A stretch of DNA of 46,720 nt from an uncultured Candidatus Saccharibacteria bacterium (GTDB taxonomy: Bacteria; Patescibacteriota; Saccharimonadia; Saccharimonadales; AWTP1-31), in contig CAZVTA010000003.1 of NCBI GenBank assembly GCA_964629815.1, positions 1 through 46,720 on the forward strand, read 5' to 3'. Below are positions 1 through 44,831 of the stretch, piece after piece. Position 1 is the first letter of the stretch, and every line of letters starts with the position of its first letter. The notes under the pieces are model-generated. The model was not told the origin of the DNA and searched no databases. It saw nothing but the letters and a program-made list of their open reading frames with translations. Both the position numbers and the translations under genes were made by a program.

Positions 1-77
1 CGGGGTGTGGCGCAGTTGGCTAGCGCGCGCGGTTTGGGACCGCGAGGTCGAAGGTTCGAGTCCTTTCACCCCGACCA
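1..77 (+). tRNA. tRNA-Pro(UGG), CCA encoded
   Basis: Cloverleaf read by eye: acceptor CGGGGTG/CACCCCG, D arm GCGC-AGTTGGCTA-GCGC, anticodon arm CGCGG-TTTGGGA-CCGCG (anticodon TGG), T arm GAAGG-TTCGAGT-CCTTT, discriminator A plus CCA. Confidence 0.9.
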
Positions 78-85
78 CGAAAGAA

Positions 86-110
86 GTCGAGCATTTTGCT
101 CGGCTTTTTT
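86..110 (+). terminator. Intrinsic terminator after tRNA-Pro
   Basis: Stem GTCGAGC/GCTCGGC (one G:U), 5-nt loop, followed by T6. Confidence 0.7.
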
Positions 111-112
111 CG

Positions 113-253
113 TGCCTGGCTGAAAAGATTAGAACCTGAGACTTGATTGCAAAGCAGGCAATAGTCGAAGGTACGTTCATGACGAACGCGCGCAAAAGCT
201 TGCTTTGAGCACGCGAGGAAATGTGCCGCAGGCAGCCCCTTTCACCCCGACCA
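113..253 (+). repeat. tRNA-3'-end-capped conserved element, copy A (Pro-linked)
   Basis: Lies between two terminators. Ends (238-253) in an exact 16-nt copy of tRNA-Pro positions 62-77 including CCA. The blocks AGAACCT (131-137), CGTTCATGACGAAC (174-187), AGCTTGCT (197-204) and GAGGAAATG (215-223) recur colinearly in the tRNA-Lys-linked copy. Confidence 0.5.
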
Positions 254-262
254 TATGAAATG

Positions 263-285
263 CCCATCCGAAAGGATGGGTTTTT
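263..285 (+). terminator. Intrinsic terminator after element copy A
   Basis: CCCATCC-GAAA-GGATGGG followed by T5. Confidence 0.7.
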
Positions 286-542
286 CATATGGTGAGAAGT
301 TTCGTCGCTTCGACCGAGAAGAATTAGGGGATGAGCACAAGCTGTGTTGTTTATAATTTATAAAAATTTGCAGACTGTTGATAAGCAATTTTTTAGGCAA
401 TGAAAAATAATAATCAATCAACGTAAGTGGTTGAAATACAAAATATTTAGATGTATGATTAGACTATCAATTTAATCCCAGCTATGGCATACAGCATGTT
501 GTAGCGAAAGGAGCACTCATGAGTAAGTATACTTGAAATTTT

Positions 543-565
543 ACAGAGCTTTGCTCTGTTTTTTG
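543..565 (+). terminator. Intrinsic terminator / attenuator-like hairpin about 30 nt upstream of the GHKL ATPase start
   Basis: Perfect stem ACAGAGC-TTT-GCTCTGT followed by T5. It is preceded by an SD-led 5-codon ORF (519-536). Confidence 0.6.
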
Positions 566-596
566 TATATTTTTTTAACAAGTGAAGGAAATATTA

Positions 597-2048
597 ATGA
601 GCTACACAGATAACACACCAAACGCAGAAAAGTTACTAGAAGCATTGAGGAGTTCGGGCTACGATAGCTATTCTGCAATTAGCGATATAGTTGATAATTC
701 ATTAGATGCAAATGCGGATATGATTAAAGTAGAGGTTGGCAAGGCGCATGCTGATGAAATTCTCATTTCGATTGCAGATAATGGCGATGGAATGGATCAT
801 AATACGCTGGATCAAGCGTTGCGATTAGGGTCATTAACTCCAAGAAATAATGAAAATCTTGGAAAATATGGCATGGGTCTAATAACTGCTAGTATCTCGC
901 TTGGAAGAAGGCTAATTGTAATAACAAAAAAGGAAGGAAAATACACAACTGGCGTTCATGATCTTGACGAGGTGGGTCAGGCAAAGAAATTTGTAAAAAC
1001 TATTCGAGAATCTAATGATGTTGAAACGAATTATTTCCTGCAGGCACTAGGTGGCGTAGATAGCGGGACAATAGTTACAATACAAAAGATAGATAATATC
1101 CAAAATAAAAATCTTAGTTCATTTTCGAGCAAGTTAGTTAGAGACTTTGGTGAAATTTTTCGATATTTCCTTGAGGCAAACAAAAAAATACTTGTAAACA
1201 ATAAGGAAGTGAAACCTTATGATCCGCTTATGCTTTCCTATGAAGATACGCAAACCTTTATAGATGATGAGCATGAATTTGAGATGGATGGCGTCAAATC
1301 TTCTGCAAGGCTAAGGATAGTGCATCTACCAAAGTTTGCTCACGCAGAGTCTGACCGGCTAGGCTTAAATATACCCAACCAGGGGTTCTATGTCATGAGA
1401 AATAATCGTCAAATTGCACACGGTGAATCATTGGGTGTGTTCAAGAAGCACGGTGACTTTAACCGATTTAGAGCCGAGCTGTTTATTAATGGGAGTCTTG
1501 ATAGGATTGTAGGTGTTAACTTCAAAAAGGAAGGCATCAGACTTAATGATGAATTACGAAGCTGGATTGAAAGACTTGCTACACCACAAATTGAAGCGGT
1601 ACGAAGGCTTGCAAAAAAAGAGCAGAAAAAAAGAAGTGGATACGTTGATCATTCAAGCAGTAAGAGGCTGATCGGTAACAAGTCTAGTTTACTGAAAAAG
1701 CCTAAACTGAGCGAGAGTGATCTAGAAAAGCCGGGGTTGAGATCTGTAAGGTCTGAAGATTTCGCCAACGTTGAATTTAAAGTAGATAGTAATACACGCT
1801 TAGCACCATTATTTCAGGCTGAATTAGTCGGAAAGAGTCTTGTTATATCTTACAATTCCGATCACCCGTTCTACGAAAAGGTGTTCATGGAAGCACAAGA
1901 CAATCCTGATCTTACTAATGCGTTAGATTCATTAGTTTACTCAACTTCCCTTGCATTGATACAGATTACTAGTCGGCAGAAGCTGTGGCCACTTCAAGAA
2001 GACTTCTATGATTATATGTCAGATAACCTAAGGGCGCTTTTGACGTAG
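597..2048 (+). CDS. GHKL-superfamily ATPase (HATPase_c_3 / MORC-like), stand-alone
   Basis: Bergerat-fold motifs are present: N box DNSLDA, G1 DNGDGM, G2 GKYGMGL. The ATG at 597 has AAGGA about 7 nt upstream; the ORF track starts at GTG 582. The gene is visibly AT-rich compared with its neighbours. Confidence 0.75.
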   Translation: MSYTDNTPNAEKLLEALRSSGYDSYSAISDIVDNSLDANADMIKVEVGKAHADEILISIADNGDGMDHNTLDQALRLGSLTPRNNENLGKYGMGLITASISLGRRLIVITKKEGKYTTGVHDLDEVGQAKKFVKTIRESNDVETNYFLQALGGVDSGTIVTIQKIDNIQNKNLSSFSSKLVRDFGEIFRYFLEANKKILVNNKEVKPYDPLMLSYEDTQTFIDDEHEFEMDGVKSSARLRIVHLPKFAHAESDRLGLNIPNQGFYVMRNNRQIAHGESLGVFKKHGDFNRFRAELFINGSLDRIVGVNFKKEGIRLNDELRSWIERLATPQIEAVRRLAKKEQKKRSGYVDHSSSKRLIGNKSSLLKKPKLSESDLEKPGLRSVRSEDFANVEFKVDSNTRLAPLFQAELVGKSLVISYNSDHPFYEKVFMEAQDNPDLTNALDSLVYSTSLALIQITSRQKLWPLQEDFYDYMSDNLRALLT

Positions 2049-2139
2049 GTCGATCAATGAGTAGCAACAGGGCGATTGACGATGTGGCAACGCCCTAAAT
2101 AATTTACCGGAGCAGGGAAGAGCATAAGATTCGGTATTA

Positions 2140-2841
2140 TTATCGGGCTGAACTTGCAAGCATAACCACGGCCAATGGAAGTATGAATGGAAGCCCGACC
2201 GTAAGGACCACTATGTAGCTGCCTAGATCGTTATTGTGTAGGTTGAGTCTTTTGGCGAGTTTGTTCGAGAAGTCGAGAGACTTCTGTATGTAGTTTGTTT
2301 TAAGTACTGCATAGCTCATGACGTACTGCAACTGAACGCCTATAACCAGTAGAATGTTCTTTTCTGGCGCGCTGGGGTTATGAAAACCTATCGCGGCGAT
2401 GAGCAATATAGCAACCGAGTATAAGACCGTCAGCATGCTGAGAAATGAATATTTTAACGATCGCTTTGCACTAACAAAATTTAATCGAGGCATCAGGTAC
2501 GGCAGTGTGCCCACTAAAACAATCCACCATTTTATGGTTGGAAGGCTTTTGTCTGCACTGTAGGCGCTCGGAGAAACAGATAGTAAAACGCCCGCAATAA
2601 CCAAAAACCAAACAAACGCTACGACGGGCACGCAAAGCAGTTTAAAGCCTTGCCAGTAGTTGCCCTTTAAAATCAGCTTTACGATATGAAGCGATAGTAG
2701 GGTAAAGAGCATTCCAAGCGCAATACAAACGGTAATGAACGCTTCGTATCCACTCTTACTAAACGCATAAGCTAATATGATGTTAAGCCCCGACACCAAT
2801 AACACATATAAGAAATTTGAAGCGTCTTTTTCTTGCCGCAT
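2140..2841 (-). CDS. Polytopic membrane protein, unknown function
   Basis: Multiple hydrophobic segments. The start is moved to the ATG of MRQEKD because a TATAAT (2848-2853, minus strand) lies 6 nt upstream, giving a leaderless layout. Confidence 0.55.
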   Translation of the reverse strand: MRQEKDASNFLYVLLVSGLNIILAYAFSKSGYEAFITVCIALGMLFTLLSLHIVKLILKGNYWQGFKLLCVPVVAFVWFLVIAGVLLSVSPSAYSADKSLPTIKWWIVLVGTLPYLMPRLNFVSAKRSLKYSFLSMLTVLYSVAILLIAAIGFHNPSAPEKNILLVIGVQLQYVMSYAVLKTNYIQKSLDFSNKLAKRLNLHNNDLGSYIVVLTVGLPFILPLAVVMLASSAR

Positions 2842-2901
2842 GGTTAGATTATAGCAGTACAAGTTAGTTGCCTACGCGAAGGGTAATGGTTAGACCCGAT
2901 T

Positions 2902-3582
2902 TTATGAATCGAAGCTTGCGCGCTCGAGTTTAATAGGTGCTGTTGGCACAAAGTCTACAAGGCTCTTCTTAATAATGATGCCTGTCCGTCTATCGTCGGT
3001 TGCGCTCTTAAATTGTACTCTACCAAGAGAAATATGTGGGTGGTTGTTTGGGAACCATGCTGCCGGGTCGTAGTCGCTTGCTGGGTCAATAAAATCCTCT
3101 ATAGCACCGATTATCTCTTGTCGTTCTGTGTGTATATCTTCAGCGCTCTCATCTGACAGGGCAAGACCGATAGACTTATTGGCATCTTTATTGCTACCGA
3201 AGACCCCGACATTTTTAACGGTAATGTACATAGGTCGACGGATTGAGAGGACTTGCTCGTAGATGGCATCAAGTATGTCTTGGTTGGTAATGCCGCGTTT
3301 GTATCTAAAATATGTAGACTCTTTTTTTGCTACGAGGCTCACAGACTTGCCGCGCTGATCGGCTTCATTTCGTACGCGGCGCGTTAAATCGCTCGTTACT
3401 GCATGGAATTCTCTTTCGATATCTGCTAAGGCAAACTCGATGACTGGTCGAAAGACAGAAAAGCGAATGTTTTGTTGCTCTTCTCTGCTTTGCGGTCTTG
3501 CTATTGTCTCTCTCGATTCATGCGCGCCATGTCTTGAAGGTCTTCCGTATGTAGGCTTAACGGGGGCAGAATGTCGTCTCAT
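2902..3582 (-). CDS. Hypothetical protein
   Basis: Long ORF with a basic N-terminus. A TATTAT lies 7 nt upstream of the ATG. No confident motif. Confidence 0.5.
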   Translation of the reverse strand: MRRHSAPVKPTYGRPSRHGAHESRETIARPQSREEQQNIRFSVFRPVIEFALADIEREFHAVTSDLTRRVRNEADQRGKSVSLVAKKESTYFRYKRGITNQDILDAIYEQVLSIRRPMYITVKNVGVFGSNKDANKSIGLALSDESAEDIHTERQEIIGAIEDFIDPASDYDPAAWFPNNHPHISLGRVQFKSATDDRRTGIIIKKSLVDFVPTAPIKLERASFDS

Positions 3583-3655
3583 GGATTAAATAATACAATA
3601 AAAACTATAAAAAAGCAACAATAATCGAACATTATAACCTGCTATAATAATGCTC

Positions 3656-24001: not shown

Positions 24002-25657
24002 GTGGCTCGTATAATATTTTATGATTGTTCGGATTTAGATGTTGCACAACTCAAGGCAAGTGCCAAAGAGCTGGGGCATCAGTTGGTGTTTAAATCAGAA
24101 CAGCTTACCCCTGAAACGGTCGACAAAAAAGCCGATGTTGTGAGTGTTTTTGTTTCGAGCAATATAAATGAGGCGTTGTTCGATCTTATGCCGAACGTTC
24201 GGCATATTGCTTGTCGCTCGACTGGCTTCGACAATGTAGATATTGCTGCGGCCGATAAGCGGGGAATTGTCGTAACCAATGTTCCTTCGTACGGCGAACA
24301 CACAGTTGCCGAGTATGTTTTTACATTGCTTCTGGCGCTGAGTCGAAAGTTACCTGCAAGTTTGGCTGGCGTAAAATCGGGCAAGATTGTTCAAACGGAA
24401 TACACTGGATTTGATCTGAATAGTAAGGTAATGGGTATTGTGGGGGCGGGTAAAATCGGACGTCGTGTTGCCGAAATTGCCAATGGTTTTGGCATGCATG
24501 TGTTGGCGTATGATCCTTTTGCAGATCCGGCATTGGCCGAAGCGTCGCACTTTACCTATGTTTCACTCGATGAACTGCTGAAAAACAGCGATGTTATATC
24601 GTTGCACGTCCCACAGACACCAGACAATGTGCACCTTATTAATAAAGCAGCATTATCAAAAATGAAAAAGTCCGCAGTGCTTGTTAATACGGCCAGGGGC
24701 GGCATTGTAGATACCGAAGCGCTCATTAATGCGCTGGATAAACAGCAGATTGCCGGTGCCGCACTCGATGTACTAGAAGGTGAACAGTTGCTGAAAGTTC
24801 AAGAAGAGCTGTTGTTGCTCAGACAAGCGCATGTCGACGCCAAGATGCTTAAACTCAGTGCAGAACTTAAAGTGCTCGAAGCTATGCCAAATGTAATTAT
24901 TACGCCGCATAGTGCATTTAACACCGTAGAGGCTATCGGACGTATCAACAAAACCGCGATCGATAACATTAGCGCCGTCTTAATTGGCAAGCCCATTAAT
25001 GTTGTTAAGACTATTACCGCTCATCCAGGAAAGTTGATTATTATGCGGCATGGCGAAAGTGAATGGAATGCGCTTGGAGTTTGGACGGGTTCGAGGGATG
25101 TGCATTTAAGCGAGAAGGGTTTTAAAGAAGCGGCTTTACTTGGAAGACAAGTTACCGACATATCGTTCGATATTTCGTTTACCAGCCAGCAAATACGGGC
25201 GCTCGAAACGCTCGAAGGTGTACTCGATTCTTCGCAACAGTTTGACGTGCCTATCGAGCGTTCGCCGGCGCTGAATGAGCGTGATTACGGTGACTATACC
25301 GGCAAGAACAAGTGGCAGGTTAAAGAGCAACTCGGCGAAGAAGAATTTGATAAACTGCGCAGAGACTGGGATTATCCGGTGCCAAATGGCGAAACGCTCA
25401 AGGACGTTTACGATCGCGCTGTGCCTTTTTATCAGCAGCGGGTGGTGCCGCAATTGATGGCAGGGAAAGACGTGTTGATTGTATCTCATGGTAATGCCAT
25501 CCGTGCACTCATGAAATATATTGAATCTATTTCCGATCAAGATATTGCCAACACTGAAATGATTTTTGGAAAAATTCTCATCTACGATGTGGATGCTCAA
25601 GGTAAAACGACCAAAAAAGAAGAGCGGGCGATCGAAACTGAACTGCCACCGGCCTAG
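24002..25657 (+). CDS. Fusion protein: D-isomer-specific 2-hydroxyacid dehydrogenase (SerA/LdhA-like) with 2,3-BPG-dependent phosphoglycerate mutase (GpmA-like)
   Basis: N-terminal part: GIVGAGKIGRRVA (GxGxxG), NTARGG, ITPHSAF. C-terminal part from about aa 340: LIIMRHGESEWN, ERDYGDYTG, SHGNAIRAL. It is one uninterrupted ORF. GTG start 8 nt after TATAAT 23988-23993. Confidence 0.85.
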   Translation: MARIIFYDCSDLDVAQLKASAKELGHQLVFKSEQLTPETVDKKADVVSVFVSSNINEALFDLMPNVRHIACRSTGFDNVDIAAADKRGIVVTNVPSYGEHTVAEYVFTLLLALSRKLPASLAGVKSGKIVQTEYTGFDLNSKVMGIVGAGKIGRRVAEIANGFGMHVLAYDPFADPALAEASHFTYVSLDELLKNSDVISLHVPQTPDNVHLINKAALSKMKKSAVLVNTARGGIVDTEALINALDKQQIAGAALDVLEGEQLLKVQEELLLLRQAHVDAKMLKLSAELKVLEAMPNVIITPHSAFNTVEAIGRINKTAIDNISAVLIGKPINVVKTITAHPGKLIIMRHGESEWNALGVWTGSRDVHLSEKGFKEAALLGRQVTDISFDISFTSQQIRALETLEGVLDSSQQFDVPIERSPALNERDYGDYTGKNKWQVKEQLGEEEFDKLRRDWDYPVPNGETLKDVYDRAVPFYQQRVVPQLMAGKDVLIVSHGNAIRALMKYIESISDQDIANTEMIFGKILIYDVDAQGKTTKKEERAIETELPPA

Positions 25658-26328: not shown

Positions 26329-26405
26329 GCACCGGTAGCTCAGTGGATTAGAGCATCTGTCTTCGGAACAGAGGGTCGGGGGTTCGAATCCCTCCCGGTG
26401 TACCA
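26329..26405 (+). tRNA. tRNA-Arg(UCG), CCA encoded
   Basis: GCACCGG acceptor, GCTC-AGTGGATTA-GAGC, TCTGT-CTTCGGA-ACAGA (anticodon TCG), GGGGG-TTCGAAT-CCCTC, CCGGTGT, A, CCA. Confidence 0.9.
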
Positions 26406-26419
26406 GGTAAAATATCAAG

Positions 26420-26439
26420 CCATCCATTCGGATGGTTTT
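26420..26439 (+). terminator. Intrinsic terminator after tRNA-Arg(UCG)
   Basis: CCATCC-ATTC-GGATGG followed by TTTT. Confidence 0.6.
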
Positions 26440-26574
26440 ATATTTTAGCTCGATGTATCGAGCACGGATTTGAACCCCCTATGTTCGGCGTAGCAATACC
26501 ACGCGCAGATACTTGTATCGAGCATGGTAGAGCGGAGGAGCCGCGAAGGCGGCGATATCCCTCCCGGTGTACCA
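26440..26574 (+). repeat. tRNA-3'-end-capped element, copy B (Arg-linked, divergent)
   Basis: Ends (26557-26574) in an exact 18-nt copy of tRNA positions 26388-26405 including CCA. Shares GAGCA.G..GAGGA and a GCCGC..GGC.GC hairpin with copy A. Confidence 0.45.
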
Positions 26575-26582
26575 CGAAAATG

Positions 26583-26607
26583 CCTCGACTTCTTGTCGGG
26601 GATTTTT
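26583..26607 (+). terminator. Intrinsic terminator after element copy B
   Basis: CCTCGAC-TTCTT-GTCGGGG followed by ATTTTT. Confidence 0.6.
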
Positions 26608-40862: not shown

Positions 40863-41222
40863 TTAATCGAGCCCAAAGCTTAAATACGCCGGCACTACAG
40901 TAGAGGTACAGTAATTGACGCTGAGTTTTCCGATTTCAACGTGGGTCGGTCGTTGGCAGTTTTTGGCAATTTCTGCGGACCTATCTACGATTGCCAGTAA
41001 TGCTTCGTGTGCATCTGTCATATCGGACATGCGTGCACTGGCATAGCTTTCTGGTGTGTCGGTTTCCGGTACAGCACGATAGTCGCTGTCTAGAACATGA
41101 GCAACTCCTGCGGCATTGAGGGCATGACCAACGGCAGCCCGGCGAGCTTTGTCGGCTAATCTTCGTTGCACTGGGCAGCCCGGGCAGTTGTTTTCGCAGT
41201 TGGTATCTACAGAACCAAGCAT
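40863..41222 (-). CDS. Hypothetical Cys-containing protein (CENNCPGCP)
   Basis: ORF only; no motif recognised. Confidence 0.45.
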   Translation of the reverse strand: MLGSVDTNCENNCPGCPVQRRLADKARRAAVGHALNAAGVAHVLDSDYRAVPETDTPESYASARMSDMTDAHEALLAIVDRSAEIAKNCQRPTHVEIGKLSVNYCTSTVVPAYLSFGLD

Positions 41223-41406
41223 ACTAGAGTCCTTTCGATTATGTACTAATCGACAATCAATAAAGAGGGTTGATTGTCCGGTTACGCTACTGGCTCCTAT
41301 TTGCTCAAGCGTCCATGTACAAGCAAATACTCATAGCCTACAACCATGTGAATGGTTATATAAACAATAACACTAATGTAATAAAAAGTCAATTTCTCGG
41401 AGTTGA

Positions 41407-44141: not shown

Positions 44142-44204
44142 ATAAATACGTCATTCTGTCTAACTACATGTTGATTGGAGTGCCCACCGTGGAATATGTG
44201 GTGA

Positions 44205-44555
44205 CTACTCTTCAGGTAGAATTTGATCCCATTTTTCTGGATTTGAGTAGGTATCTAGAACCTCAACATCTCTAGCACCTTCACAAAAGTCTTCTGACAT
44301 CTTACTCCAATGTCGTCCACTAAAGTGTGCGATTCCTGCTATAGCCAACCAGCTACCGCCATTCATAATATATGGCGATAAAGTTTGTGAATGATAATCA
44401 ACGCCAGCTAAGTCTACCACACCGATTATCGTCTCAGTTATAGCACCCAATCCAAGTAAAATATTTCGAGAAGTAACACACAGACGAGAGTCAACTTCAC
44501 AGCTAGCTGCAATTGAACGAAGACCATGTGAAGCTCTATCAAACTCATTTGCCAT
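44205..44555 (-). CDS. Hypothetical protein
   Basis: ORF whose ATG lies 44 nt downstream of element copy C. TAGTAT sits 6 nt upstream of the ATG. Confidence 0.45.
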   Translation of the reverse strand: MANEFDRASHGLRSIAASCEVDSRLCVTSRNILLGLGAITETIIGVVDLAGVDYHSQTLSPYIMNGGSWLAIAGIAHFSGRHWSKMSEDFCEGARDVEVLDTYSNPEKWDQILPEE

Positions 44556-44599
44556 ACGTTCATACTAACCCAAAGCACTGGTATAGCCATAACCGGGAT

Positions 44600-44721
44600 T
44601 GGAGAGCCCACGGGGGCGTTCTATCGAACCATTTCCTCACTTACTCGGAGCAAGCTCCTGCGTAAGTTCGTCATGAACGAACCCAAGATTCCTAGGTTCT
44701 CGAGCCTGGTAGCCCCCAAAT
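44600..44721 (-). repeat. tRNA-3'-end-capped conserved element, copy C (Lys-linked)
   Basis: On the minus strand: AGAACCT (44694-44700), CGTTCATGACGAAC (44666-44679), AGCTTGCT (44649-44656), GAGGAAATG (44630-44638), then a 14/16 copy of the tRNA-Lys 3' end including CCA (44600-44615). Confidence 0.5.
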
Positions 44722-44747
44722 GAAAAGACCCCACCGTTGGTGAGGTC
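44722..44747 (-). terminator. Intrinsic terminator after tRNA-Lys
   Basis: On the minus strand: GACCTCACC-AAC-GGTGGGGTC (one U:G) followed by TTTTC. Confidence 0.65.
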
Positions 44748-44754
44748 ATTTCAC

Positions 44755-44831
44755 TGGAGGGCCCACTGGGACTCGAACCCAGGACACGTGGCTTAAGAGG
44801 CCACTGCTCTAACCAACTGAGCTATGGGCCC
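44755..44831 (-). tRNA. tRNA-Lys(CUU), CCA encoded
   Basis: Reverse complement: GGGCCCA acceptor, GCTC-AGTTGGTTA-GAGC, GTGGC-CTCTTAA-GCCAC (anticodon CTT), CTGGG-TTCGAGT-CCCAG, TGGGCCC, T, CCA. Confidence 0.9.

Follow-up and report, generated by a model that had tools for sequence, protein, structure and literature searches.

The 3' ends of tRNA genes are classic docking sites for genomic islands. To our knowledge, the elements described there are large, carry an integrase and are specific for a single site, and the mobile elements of Saccharibacteria are barely known. Casposon insertion at tRNA 3' ends duplicates about 14-16 bp of target, consisting of that end. The integron attC site works as a folded single strand. 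The IVS of bacterial 23S rRNA is an extended hairpin that replaces the terminal loop of a helix, occurs sporadically and has variants exchanged between alleles or strains, and variants of Neurospora retroplasmids capture tRNA sequences by a template-switching reverse transcriptase. CIMEs and IMEs are known to accrete at the 3' ends of tRNA genes (PMC5704250), and attP(+) of the CTX phage is a folded single-strand recombination site (PMC3442271).

We analyzed a stretch of 46,720 nucleotides from an uncultured Candidatus Saccharibacteria bacterium (the window), in which the feature at positions 1-290 belongs to a family of composite inserts, each about 150-200 bp long, from one Saccharibacteria clade. 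The family is an undescribed small DNA insert directly 3' of several tRNA genes of these CPR bacteria. Three copies were present in the window, one each immediately downstream of tRNA-Pro, tRNA-Arg(UCG) and tRNA-Lys, and six further loci were found, all on other Saccharibacteria-type contigs, with Phe, Arg-CCU, Asp, Trp, Met and Lys-UUU as the cognate tRNAs. The nine tRNA genes represent eight isoacceptors, tRNA-Lys being occupied twice at orthologous loci. The total sample is thus nine copies, and several lines of evidence come from the single orthologous pair formed by the window tRNA-Lys locus and L046. Over the whole window, a covariance search run without filters yielded nothing beyond the three copies, the next match scoring 11.5 bits. 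The sequence-only reading had described an element after tRNA-Pro that ends in an exact copy of the tRNA 3' end and is part of a conserved three-copy family; the count of three in the window was correct. The tail of the Lys copy is inexact (14/16). Across the family, all nine true copies recovered with the core lie directly behind a tRNA and on its strand, with tails that are exact in three copies and degenerate, through substitutions or deletions, in six.

The distribution is patchy. No element was found at the His, Arg-UCU and Gly tRNAs of the window, at a near-identical tRNA-Pro in the syntenic distant relative L023, or in five other Saccharibacteria lineages (L023, L025, L026, L032 and L033), and about two thirds of the sampled tRNAs lack one. 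A candidate at tRNA-Gly in L004 was rejected as a chance match. Exact-pattern scans gave two true and one chance match in GTDB genomes, and two true and 15 chance matches in JGI metagenomes. In IMG/VR, pattern scans gave chance coding-sequence matches only, with no tRNA and no covariance-model match, and blastn against phage and plasmid collections detected no element. Rfam 15 at the gathering threshold identified the tRNAs and one c-di-GMP-II riboswitch in the window but no element, and nothing credible over 111-253 at E <= 10. Subfamilies cut across genomes and tRNAs: the window Pro copy and the tRNA-Met copy in L022 are identical at 56 of 62 positions over the core and P4. A search for close strains by exact protein brought up only short contigs of the same population, which stop at or within the element-bearing tRNAs.

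The general layout is a tRNA, a terminator (T1), an inverted copy of the 3' third of the tRNA, a loop (L), a short direct segment (S1), a core of 50-70 nt, a tail and usually a second terminator (T2), which was found after two of the three window copies. S1 is a direct copy of cognate tRNA nt ~47-57, and the tail, 16-18 nt long, is a direct copy of nt 58/61-77, so that the core occupies exactly the position of the T-loop. The element is a pseudo-tRNA 3' fragment, its T-loop interrupted by the core, partly folded back on its own inverted copy. The features of the window copies are listed in Table 1.

Table 1. Features of the three window copies, in the order of the tRNA-sense strand within each copy.
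Copy	Feature	Position	Strand	Evidence
1	tRNA-Pro(UGG), cognate gene	1..77	+	ARAGORN; Rfam tRNA model, 65.5 bits
1	T1, hairpin then T-run directly after tRNA-Pro	86..110	+	read from sequence
1	Inverted copy of tRNA-Pro nt 71->52, GGCTGAAAAGATTAGAACCT, 16/20	118..137	+	local alignment
1	L, variable apical hairpin of P1	138..163	+	not conserved between copies
1	S1, direct copy of tRNA-Pro nt 47-58, GTCGAAGGTaCG, 11/12; pairs with inverted copy (P1)	164..175	+
1	Type A core, TTCATGACGAAC-N27-GAGGAAATG	176..223	+	R1, 89.4 bits
1	P4 hairpin TGCC-GCA-GGCA and joiner GCC; common to tRNA-Met copy of L022	224..237	+
1	Tail, exact tRNA-Pro nt 62-77 (T-stem 3' strand, acceptor 3' strand, ACCA)	238..253	+
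1	T2, second intrinsic terminator; extended stem ACCATATGAAA x TTTCATATGGT	262..286	+	terminator scan
2	tRNA-Arg(UCG), cognate gene	26329..26405	+	ARAGORN; Rfam tRNA model
2	T1, CCATCC..GGATGG hairpin family	26417..26438	+
2	5' hairpin GCTCGATGTATCGAGC and inverted tRNA-Arg T-arm	26448..26479	+	local alignment
2	S1 remnant GTTCG, then type B core with GCCGC-GAAG-GCGGC hairpin	26482..26556	+	R2, 83.3 bits; R1, 59.6 bits
2	Tail, exact 18-nt copy of tRNA-Arg(UCG) 3' end	26557..26574	+
2	T2	26583..26607	+	terminator scan
3	tRNA-Lys(CUU), cognate gene	44755..44831	-	ARAGORN; Rfam tRNA model
3	T1, CCTCACC..GGTGGGG hairpin family; same family as T1 of L022 Met copy	44727..44747	-
3	Inverted tRNA-Lys 3' third (44690-44718), 1-nt loop, S1 TCTTGGGTTCG (44678-44688)	44678..44718	-
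3	Type A core (44630-44677), then GTTCGATAGAAC and joiner	44616..44677	-	R1, 85.7 bits
3	Degenerate tail CCCCGTGGGCTCTCCA, 14/16 to tRNA-Lys	44600..44615	-
3	Third, older direct repeat of tRNA-Lys 3' end, CACGGTGGGCACTCCA	44176..44191	-

At tRNA-Pro, the coordinates given by the sequence-only reading for the tRNA (1-77), the terminator (86-110), the exact 16-nt copy (238-253) and the second terminator were all confirmed, and AGAACCT (131-137), CGTTCATGACGAAC (174-187), AGCTTGCT (197-204) and GAGGAAATG (215-223) were present where it had placed them. The same blocks occur in the Lys copy (minus strand, 44600-44718), and its count of 40 identical positions out of 50 between the Pro and Lys cores was exact. 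The 16-nt sequence CCTTTCACCCCGACCA had two matches in the window vs 0.16 expected even with three mismatches allowed, and the 31-nt pattern CGTTCATGACGAAC-N9-AGCTTGCT occurred twice vs 0.00 in 100 shuffles. T1 of this copy reads as bidirectional; its extended stem begins at the CA of CCA, and the scan flags a minus-strand stem at 88-102. The inverted arm shows, by eye, a weak extension that reaches TGG (anti-CCA) near position 115. A small ORF that would begin with the ATG in GAGGAAATG was rejected, as it meets a stop after three codons in the Lys copy (by eye). The proposed third copy, linked to tRNA-Arg(UCG), carries the exact 18-nt tail (26557-26574) preceded by CGAT, a T-loop remnant, and judged by the covariance model it is a true but divergent homologue (R1, 59.6 bits, E ~1e-13). 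Its inverted T-arm is GGATTTGAACCCCC (13/14) at 26466-26479, and its 5' hairpin is common to the tRNA-Arg(CCU) copy in L003.

Three features had been missed by the sequence-only reading: the copy of the tRNA in inverted orientation, a second segment copied directly from it, and the T-loop position of the core. Local alignment, with the reverse-complemented tRNA against the downstream sequence, placed the core between copies of its cognate tRNA in both orientations. The tRNA-copy alignment scores exceeded those at 20 element-free tRNAs (p = 4e-5 to 7e-5; for the inverted copy, p = 7e-5). The arms end exactly at CCA and begin at tRNA nt 45-50, and in the Phe copy they form a palindrome, CGAACTGG followed by CCAGTTCG, with zero spacer. 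GGTTCG, itself T-loop sequence, is repeated on both sides of the type A core in four of six copies. In young copies divergence is clearly greater in the inverted arm than in the tail. P1, formed by the inverted copy and S1 on the T-stem side, pairs in seven of eight copies, while its apical hairpin, loop L, varies from 0 to about 30 nt and is not conserved. P0, formed by the 5' inverted acceptor part and the tail, is significantly complementary in only two of eight copies, indicating that the element does not maintain a complete duplex mimicking the target; the idea of a tRNA minihelix or RNase P substrate formed through P0 is weakened by the same count.

Two core types, A and B, were distinguished. 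They are homologous; each covariance model (R1, R2) recognizes the other type at 30-60 bits, and both occur within one genome in the window and in L003. The type A core of copy 1 is an irregular hairpin whose stem is capped by CUUG, whose lower helix has a C.A mismatch that is conserved, and whose internal loops are rich in G and A. Among the 13 pairs of type A, 93% of cells were paired and seven pairs were compensatory, a result obtained in 0 of 500 shuffles; the AAAG/CTTT vs GGAG/CTCC change noted by the sequence-only reading is real and part of this wider signal. For type B, 100% of cells were paired over 11 pairs, seven of them compensatory. These compensatory changes support a core that is probably a folded single strand. 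P1 of the Lys copy has 10 bp, with two G.U pairs that exist on the tRNA-sense strand only, and together with the G(CUUG)C loop these favor the tRNA-sense strand as the folded one. Thermodynamic z-scores of the cores were unremarkable (+0.2 to -3.1), and stability was set aside as structural evidence because these scores are not decisive. Hammerhead and other small ribozymes, group II domain V, SRP, sarcin-ricin, box C/D and K-turn likenesses are no more than remarks, since the conserved positions do not fit (by eye) and Rfam is silent. The core is highly conserved even where the tail has decayed, which would also fit a host function in situ.

The orthologous tRNA-Lys locus of a close relative, L046, is 92% identical to that of the window. 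Identity was 96% in the tRNA, 93% for T1 together with the inverted copy, and 90-95% from the cassette ORF onward, vs 54% aligned identity with 20 gap columns in the interval from S1 to the tail. This interval is of type A in the window and of type B in L046, with the flanks kept. The core has been exchanged as a unit between close relatives. A close relative with an empty site was not seen; the polymorphism found was this type swap rather than presence or absence. Tail identity between the two loci was 81% vs 82% over the 44 nt of spacer that follow, and the L046 tail matches tRNA-Lys at 15 of 16 positions with its mismatch at a different position from those of the window tail. As it diverges like the adjacent spacer, the tail is a duplication or recombination scar drifting at the neutral rate. 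The data give no support to a tail acting as guide or acceptor mimic.

The tRNA 3' ends that carry elements also hold older repeats bounding ORF cassettes. At tRNA-Lys in the window and at tRNA-Phe in L004, small ORF cassettes are bounded by a third tRNA-end repeat that is more degenerate. The window repeat (44176..44191) bounds a cassette with one 116-aa ORF (44205-44555), has the post-CCA ATC in common with the Lys tail and is unchanged in L046. Two copies lie next to defence islands, with an MzaB-like gene in the window and PDC-S11 and restriction-modification genes in L022. Pfam scans of about 50 window ORFs and 20 ORFs beside other copies detected no integrase, recombinase or transposase; no reverse transcriptase or HUH enzyme was detected in the 46.7-kb window or beside any copy, and no TnpB, IscB or Cas-like ORF in the window or near the copies. 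No sigma-70-like promoter was detected between T1 and the body in the three window copies, with the proviso that CPR promoters are poorly known; the same scan does find a sigma-70-like promoter upstream of tRNA-Lys.

Compared with the described systems, the family shares with CTX attP(+) and attC inverted target-like copies predicted to fold to a hairpin, a variable apical part, structure conserved rather than sequence, and probably strand-specific folding. It differs in that its target is the tRNA T-arm and not dif or attI, no Xer or IntI sites or genes are known from the window, the outer half of the predicted duplex (P0) is poorly maintained, and its conserved branched core has no counterpart in those sites. 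Like MITEs, REPINs and other non-autonomous hairpin repeats, the copies are short, multi-copy, intergenic, hairpin-forming and ORF-free, with subfamilies spread across genomes. Unlike in these repeats, the inverted repeats are copies of the neighboring gene, located inside the insert and not element-specific termini, and every copy is tied to a tRNA 3' end; element ends are not conserved between copies, and neither hallmark of a MITE is seen, be it terminal inverted repeats proper to the element or a target-site duplication of short, fixed length. As in the 23S rRNA IVS, a hairpin stands in place of the terminal loop of a stable-RNA helix and has a sporadic occurrence and exchanged variants, but the host helix is a non-functional tRNA fragment instead of a working gene. 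A duplication made of the tRNA 3' end is also common to the casposons; the family, however, is tiny, lacks terminal inverted repeats, Cas1 and PolB, and carries extra tRNA-derived segments inside the insert.

Taken together, we consider the best explanation, which we would trust about halfway, to be that a recombination scar of the tRNA 3' end houses a hairpin cassette that is non-autonomous and replaceable and that needs a folded single strand to spread. The core would be a non-autonomous mobile cassette aimed at T-arm/T-loop DNA and would survive only in non-essential copies of tRNA ends. Its propagation would need the folded tRNA-sense single strand, as a ssDNA or RNA intermediate, and the fold may be read by a trans-acting recombinase or transposase encoded elsewhere, comparable to integron attC and CTX attP(+). 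The match of the tRNA-specific arms to eight isoacceptors is not accounted for by this cassette. The proposal by the sequence-only reading of a miniature integrase-type element or att scar was right in essence, given the neutral tail, the degenerate tails in six of nine copies, the older repeats and the core-type swap. It is incomplete in that no integrase, transposase or reverse transcriptase was detected in the window or beside any copy, that a single core family is found at eight isoacceptors, and that neither the inverted copy nor the covarying T-loop hairpin is explained by a plain att scar.

The main rival, somewhat unlikely in our judgment, is a structured small RNA that benefits the host. 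It would be transcribed by read-through of T1, its G/A-rich core would bind a protein or RNA, and the tRNA arms would form a tRNA-like helix for processing or stability, kept similar by gene conversion with the neighboring tRNA. Strong covariation in both core types, conservation of the core beside decayed tails and the coexistence of types A and B in one genome fit such an RNA, as do the constant tRNA orientation, the terminators on both sides, and, on the tRNA-sense strand, the strand-specific G.U pairs and stable G(CUUG)C tetraloop. Against it are the strong terminator upstream with no promoter detected, the neutral drift of the tail, the presence of types A and B at the same orthologous site in close relatives, and the lack of the element at about two thirds of the sampled tRNAs and in five other sampled Saccharibacteria lineages; nor does it account for both orientations of its own tRNA in each copy. 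Of the structured RNA with an acceptor-like tail put forward by the sequence-only reading, the folded strand was borne out by the covariation, whereas the functional tail was not supported and no promoter was found. A guide RNA, to which we give little credence, would use the scaffold and the target-matching segments to program a nuclease or recombinase guided by RNA to the tRNA 3' end, where it would steer the accretion of cassettes; possible analogues are TnpB omega RNA with its 16-nt 3' guide, IS110 bridge RNA, CAST homing crRNA and TIGR-Tas-like systems. As in omega RNA and other scaffold-plus-3'-guide RNAs, a structured scaffold (~100-150 nt; about 125 nt here) precedes a segment of about 16 nt (16-18 nt here) identical to the adjacent target; both target strands are represented, sense and antisense, as in bridge RNA; the elements adjoin the target, where cassettes accumulate; and RNA-guided Nop-domain systems occur in CPR bacteria (PMC12045711). 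Unlike a guide, however, the tail is not under selection and has suffered drift and deletions, the two kinds of segment, sense and antisense, pair with one another and not with adjacent target halves, and neither an effector gene nearby nor a promoter was found.

Decayed tyrosine-integrase islands (CIMEs) that have lost cargo and integrase, their blocks being double-stranded arm-type protein-binding sites, are very unlikely to explain the family. The resemblance is clear in the direct repeat from T-loop to CCA, the classical tRNA att-core pattern, which bounds the insert and leaves the proximal tRNA intact, and in the units with cargo ORFs that pile up in tandem 3' of the gene, older repeats being more degenerate; two copies adjoin defence islands, and accretion at tRNA 3' ends is documented (PMC5704250). 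Yet the insert has only 150-200 bp and no integrase, and the same architecture is not expected from nine independent deletions. Compensatory changes argue for a folded strand and not for double-stranded sites, one core at eight isoacceptors contrasts with site-specific integrase families, and neither the core that covaries inside the distal T-loop nor the inverted tRNA copy is explained. The least probable reading is a retro-copy, in which a template-switching reverse transcriptase would have joined a snap-back cDNA of the 3' third of the mature tRNA (CCA to about nt 47) to the core as template RNA. The exact ends at CCA and starts at nt 45-50, the strand order of antisense, turn and sense, and the spacer-free Phe palindrome are in line with it. 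The CCA is genome-encoded, however, and so leaves no mark of RNA origin, the greater divergence of the inverted arm in young copies implies parts of different age, the core lies in one arm only, and no reverse transcriptase was seen in the window or in ORFs beside the copies.

Beyond the replaceable hairpin cassette itself, it is conceivable, if doubtful, that the cores are a new class of mobile hairpins of about 50-70 nt that recognize the T-arm/T-loop by shape, as ssDNA or RNA, so that any tRNA 3' region could be entered, with the inverted and direct tRNA copies as a by-product or requirement of the insertion chemistry (a target-mimicking fold-back). If true, they would be a structure-guided, retargetable insertion system that seeds landing pads for gene cassettes in tiny CPR genomes.

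The family is a short hairpin cassette whose folded core is kept behind eight isoacceptors and swapped between close strains, at sites where ORF and defence cassettes gather. Whether mobile or RNA, the element makes short-read assemblies break at its tRNAs. If the core is an RNA, it would represent a new structured RNA family in one-to-one association with tRNAs. If it is mobile, it would point to an unrecognized enzyme that reads T-arm shape, serve as a practical marker for integration hot spots in CPR genomes and mark a route of gene flux in Saccharibacteria.

Three copies of the element were present in the window, downstream of tRNA-Pro(UGG), tRNA-Arg(UCG) and tRNA-Lys(CUU). The four sequence blocks that the sequence-only reading had placed in the Pro copy were all at the correct coordinates; the same blocks, claimed 3' of tRNA-Lys on the minus strand, were recovered there with 40/50 positions identical, equal to the reader's count, and the claimed tRNA-Arg(UCG)-linked copy was confirmed, its tail (the distal copy of the tRNA 3' end) being an exact 18-nt match. 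The Lys tail was imperfect (14/16). The 16-mer CCTTTCACCCCGACCA, the Pro tail, was matched twice in the window versus 0.16 expected, even with three mismatches allowed, and the 31-nt pattern CGTTCATGACGAAC-N9-AGCTTGCT twice versus 0.00 in shuffles. A covariance search of the whole window with filters off, using the core model R1, yielded nothing beyond the known copies, and no such element was seen at the window's other three tRNAs (His, Arg-UCU and Gly).

Positions of element parts, repeats and cassettes in the window and in related contigs (L003, L004, L022)
Feature	Position	Strand	Remark
tRNA-Pro(UGG)	1-77	+	tRNA gene of the Pro copy
Hairpin and T-run after tRNA-Pro	86-110	+	recurring terminator site
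Tail of the Pro copy, CCTTTCACCCCGACCA	238-253	+	exact 16-mer copy of the tRNA-Pro 3' end
Second intrinsic terminator, Pro copy	262-286	+	recurring terminator site
Further recurring terminator sites	26417-26438, 26583-26607, 44727-44747; L003 668; L004 4595; L022 6721		
Third, more degenerate tRNA-Lys 3'-end repeat	44176-44191	-	shares post-CCA bases with the tail
One-gene cassette	44176-44615	-	420-bp unit between tail and third repeat
Hydrophobic 116-aa ORF	44205-44555	-	in the Lys cassette
Fic/DOC C-terminal fragment ORF	L004 5077-5367		inside the tRNA-Phe unit

Exact-pattern scans located the core 3' of four more tRNA genes, namely tRNA-Phe (L004, a Saccharimonadota MAG), tRNA-Arg(CCU) (L003, another MAG), tRNA-Trp (L013) and tRNA-Met (L022); the remaining matches were chance occurrences inside coding sequence. 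R1 recovered all pattern-found copies and also picked up, at 34 bits, a divergent one behind tRNA-Asp of L003, and a ninth locus (L046/L047) was reached via the homologue of a neighbouring ORF. When tRNA linkage was checked, every copy (9/9) directly followed a tRNA encoded on its own strand; these genes cover eight isoacceptors with tRNA-Lys counted twice at orthologous loci; a family with strict tRNA linkage is established. In ~260 kb of sequence from Saccharibacteria, about 20 further tRNAs lacked the element, among them every one sampled from five other lineages. It was also absent at the near-identical tRNA-Pro of L023, a distant but syntenic relative, where the cargo was different. No Rfam family matched, and the element was not found in IMG/VR or in phage and plasmid collections. 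The window derives from an uncultured Saccharibacteria (CPR) bacterium. The best relatives of the window proteins were Candidatus Saccharibacteria and Saccharimonadales records (35-59% identity), and genes identical to window genes were present on metagenome contigs of run SRR16481182. Three contigs of this run from the same population (L001, L030 and L031) stopped inside or at tRNA-Lys, tRNA-Arg(UCG) and tRNA-Pro, the L031 end corresponding to window position ~48, the start of the segment repeated as S1; short-read assemblies are apparently broken by the element repeats at these tRNAs.

The cores were of two homologous types. Type A (consensus TTCATGACGAAC-N27-GAGGAAATG) was carried by the Pro, Met, Trp, Lys, Phe and Arg(CCU) elements, and type B by Arg(UCG) in the window, Asp in L003 and Lys in L046. 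In a covariance check of seven type A sequences with 13 proposed pairs, 93% of cells were standard pairs and 7 pairs changed on both sides, a covariation score reached by 0/500 shuffles; slid controls were only 26-50% paired. The covariation sat in a CUUG-capped stem and a lower helix in which a C.A mismatch keeps its position, and the outermost pairs and an alternative local hairpin (CGTTC-ATGAC-GAACG) were invariant. Type B showed 100% pairing with 7/11 pairs compensatory. A covarying core is established; core folding energies by themselves were unremarkable. Both types had a central GCA-stem-GAG motif, their models cross-detected each other at 30-60 bits, and they coexisted within the same genomes. 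The Pro (window) and Met (L022) elements were identical at 56/62 positions over the core and P4, a small hairpin 3' of it; their loops and terminators were unrelated. Core subfamilies cut across genomes and tRNAs.

Each tRNA was aligned in both orientations to its own downstream sequence, and every element contained three pieces derived from the cognate tRNA. At the 5' side was a reverse-complement copy of the tRNA 3' third (Pro 16/20, Arg-UCG 13/14, Arg-CCU 14/17, Trp 14/15, Met 17/23); immediately 5' of the core was S1, a direct copy of tRNA nt ~47-57 that spans the variable loop, the 5' strand of the T-stem and GGTTCG (11/12 for both Pro and Met, 10/11 for Lys, 8/8 for both Phe and Arg-CCU); and the tail corresponded to nt 58/61-77. 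Alignment scores exceeded those at element-free tRNAs (p = 4e-5 to 7e-5), and the tRNA-derived composite architecture is established. The order was tRNA, terminator T1, inverted copy, loop L (0-30 nt), S1, core, tail and terminator T2, and from the layout S1-core-tail the core therefore occupies exactly the T-loop place of a second, partial tRNA copy. By eye, a GGTTCG repeat flanked type A cores in 4/6 copies and TTCG ... CGA(T)RT flanked type B cores; the flanks of both are T-loop sequence. The inverted copy and S1 are predicted to pair as a helix, P1, which in the Lys copy keeps 10 pairs via two G.U pairs present on the tRNA-sense strand only. P0, the helix between the tail and the acceptor part of the inverted copy on the 5' side, was significant in only 2/8 copies.

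The 5' parts were also compared. The L003 Arg(CCU) element (690-725, type A) and the window Arg(UCG) element (26448-26479, type B) had a common 5' hairpin, GCTCGAT(GT)ATCGAGCAC, as well as GATTTGAACC and the same T1 family; with common 5' parts beside different core types, 5' modules and cores therefore assort independently. Three terminator-hairpin families (CCATCC..GGATGG, CCTCACC..GGTGGGG and CYCGAC..GTCGGG) recurred in the T1 or T2 position of different elements from different genomes and nowhere else in ~300 kb, one type being T2 at tRNA-Pro and T1 at tRNA-Arg(UCG).

The orthologous tRNA-Lys locus of a close relative, L046, was 92% identical to the window over 741 columns. Identity was 96% in the tRNA, 93% in T1 and the inverted copy, 8/8 in S1, 90% in the cassette ORF and 95% in the remainder including the third repeat. 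L, core and P4 (S1 aside) reached 54% with 20 gap columns, this segment holding a type A core in the window and a type B core with a longer loop in L046. This type swap at an orthologous site is established: the core was replaced whole, with S1 and the tail as the exact limits, faster than these strains diverged. Identity in the 16-nt tail was 81% versus 82% in the next 44 nt of spacer, so the tail evolves like neutral spacer; this neutrality is likewise established and marks the tail as a scar rather than a guide or an acceptor mimic under selection. The window and L046 tails differed from tRNA-Lys at different positions (14/16 and 15/16), and elsewhere tails had a 7-nt deletion (Arg-CCU) or had lost the 3' half (Trp, Asp). 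The tRNA-Lys anticodon has shifted between these close relatives: the two genes (window 44755-44831, L046 1484-1560) differed in the anticodon, CTT versus TTT, and in two D-loop bases.

Element-bearing tRNA ends are recombination hot spots. Older repeats with cassettes are established at two tRNAs. The whole one-gene Lys unit was kept in L046, and its ORF gave no match in Pfam or PADLOC. At tRNA-Phe of L004 a third degenerate repeat, TTCGAGT-tttc-CTTGGTAGAGGCCACCAA, T-loop included, bounded a ~680-bp unit (L004 4739-5436). Repeats were better preserved in proximal units, the expected product of successive insertions at an intact gene, the CIME/IME accretion pattern (PMC5704250). A 74%-identical homologue of the Lys-cassette ORF lay on contigs L044 (1399-1807) and L045 (212-620). 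It has a degenerate repeat of the tRNA-Lys end, CACAGTGGCCCTTCAA, in front of it and belongs to a run of small ORFs, on a contig without tRNA, that resembles a cassette array. The cargo at element-bearing tRNAs looks like defence islands: low-GC (39-41%) cargo after the Pro element (window 290-3600) included an MzaB-like HATPase_c_3 protein/ATPase (582-2048), and PDC-S11 (DUF4268), a restriction-enzyme-like HATPase_c_3 protein and a C-5 cytosine methylase followed the Met element (L022 2578-6456).

Two further features of the window were recorded. A c-di-GMP-II riboswitch aptamer (41267-41350, minus strand) scored 62 bits, which exceeds the gathering score; in this Saccharibacteria genome it is found upstream of a 119-aa ORF without assigned function (40863-41222). 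A 551-aa protein (24002-25657) in which a D-2-hydroxyacid dehydrogenase is fused to a histidine-phosphatase (phosphoglycerate-mutase-like) domain is conserved in >100 Saccharimonadales proteins at 52-59% identity.

That direct repeats occur and accrete at tRNA 3' ends is textbook knowledge. Rfam and a limited literature search revealed no described family combining a covarying hairpin core in a pseudo-tRNA T-loop, an inverted copy of the same tRNA, many tRNAs and core-type exchange; that the elements form a new class of structure-guided mini-element seems quite improbable. For the core as a mobile cassette, we consider the case evenly balanced. The core would then be a non-autonomous, replaceable cassette targeting T-arm/T-loop sequence and surviving only in copies of the tRNA end that are dispensable, and its spread would need a folded single strand of tRNA-sense polarity. 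The nearest mechanistic precedents are integron attC and CTX phage attP(+), which act in recombination as single strands in folded form; the attP(+) hairpin arises by fold-back of two inverted sites that resemble the target (PMC3442271). One strand exchange in the T-loop between such a fold-back and the tRNA gene would yield the exact observed order of tRNA, short element DNA, inverted copy, loop, S1, core, old 3' end and old terminator.

Several points weigh against the simple fold-back version: no enzyme was identified, P0 is poorly kept, and the match of the arms to eight tRNA isoacceptors is without explanation. The core is also conserved in copies with decayed tails, and a host function would account for this too. 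A structured RNA of the host, which accounts for that conservation, is in our estimate unlikely. A consensus scan for sigma-70-like promoters found none in the interval from T1 to the element body, in all window copies alike, and did find one in front of tRNA-Lys; this is weak evidence on element expression because CPR promoters are poorly characterised. Smaller weight is given to a guide RNA, the tail being a scar, and likewise to plain decayed islands and a retro-copied origin.
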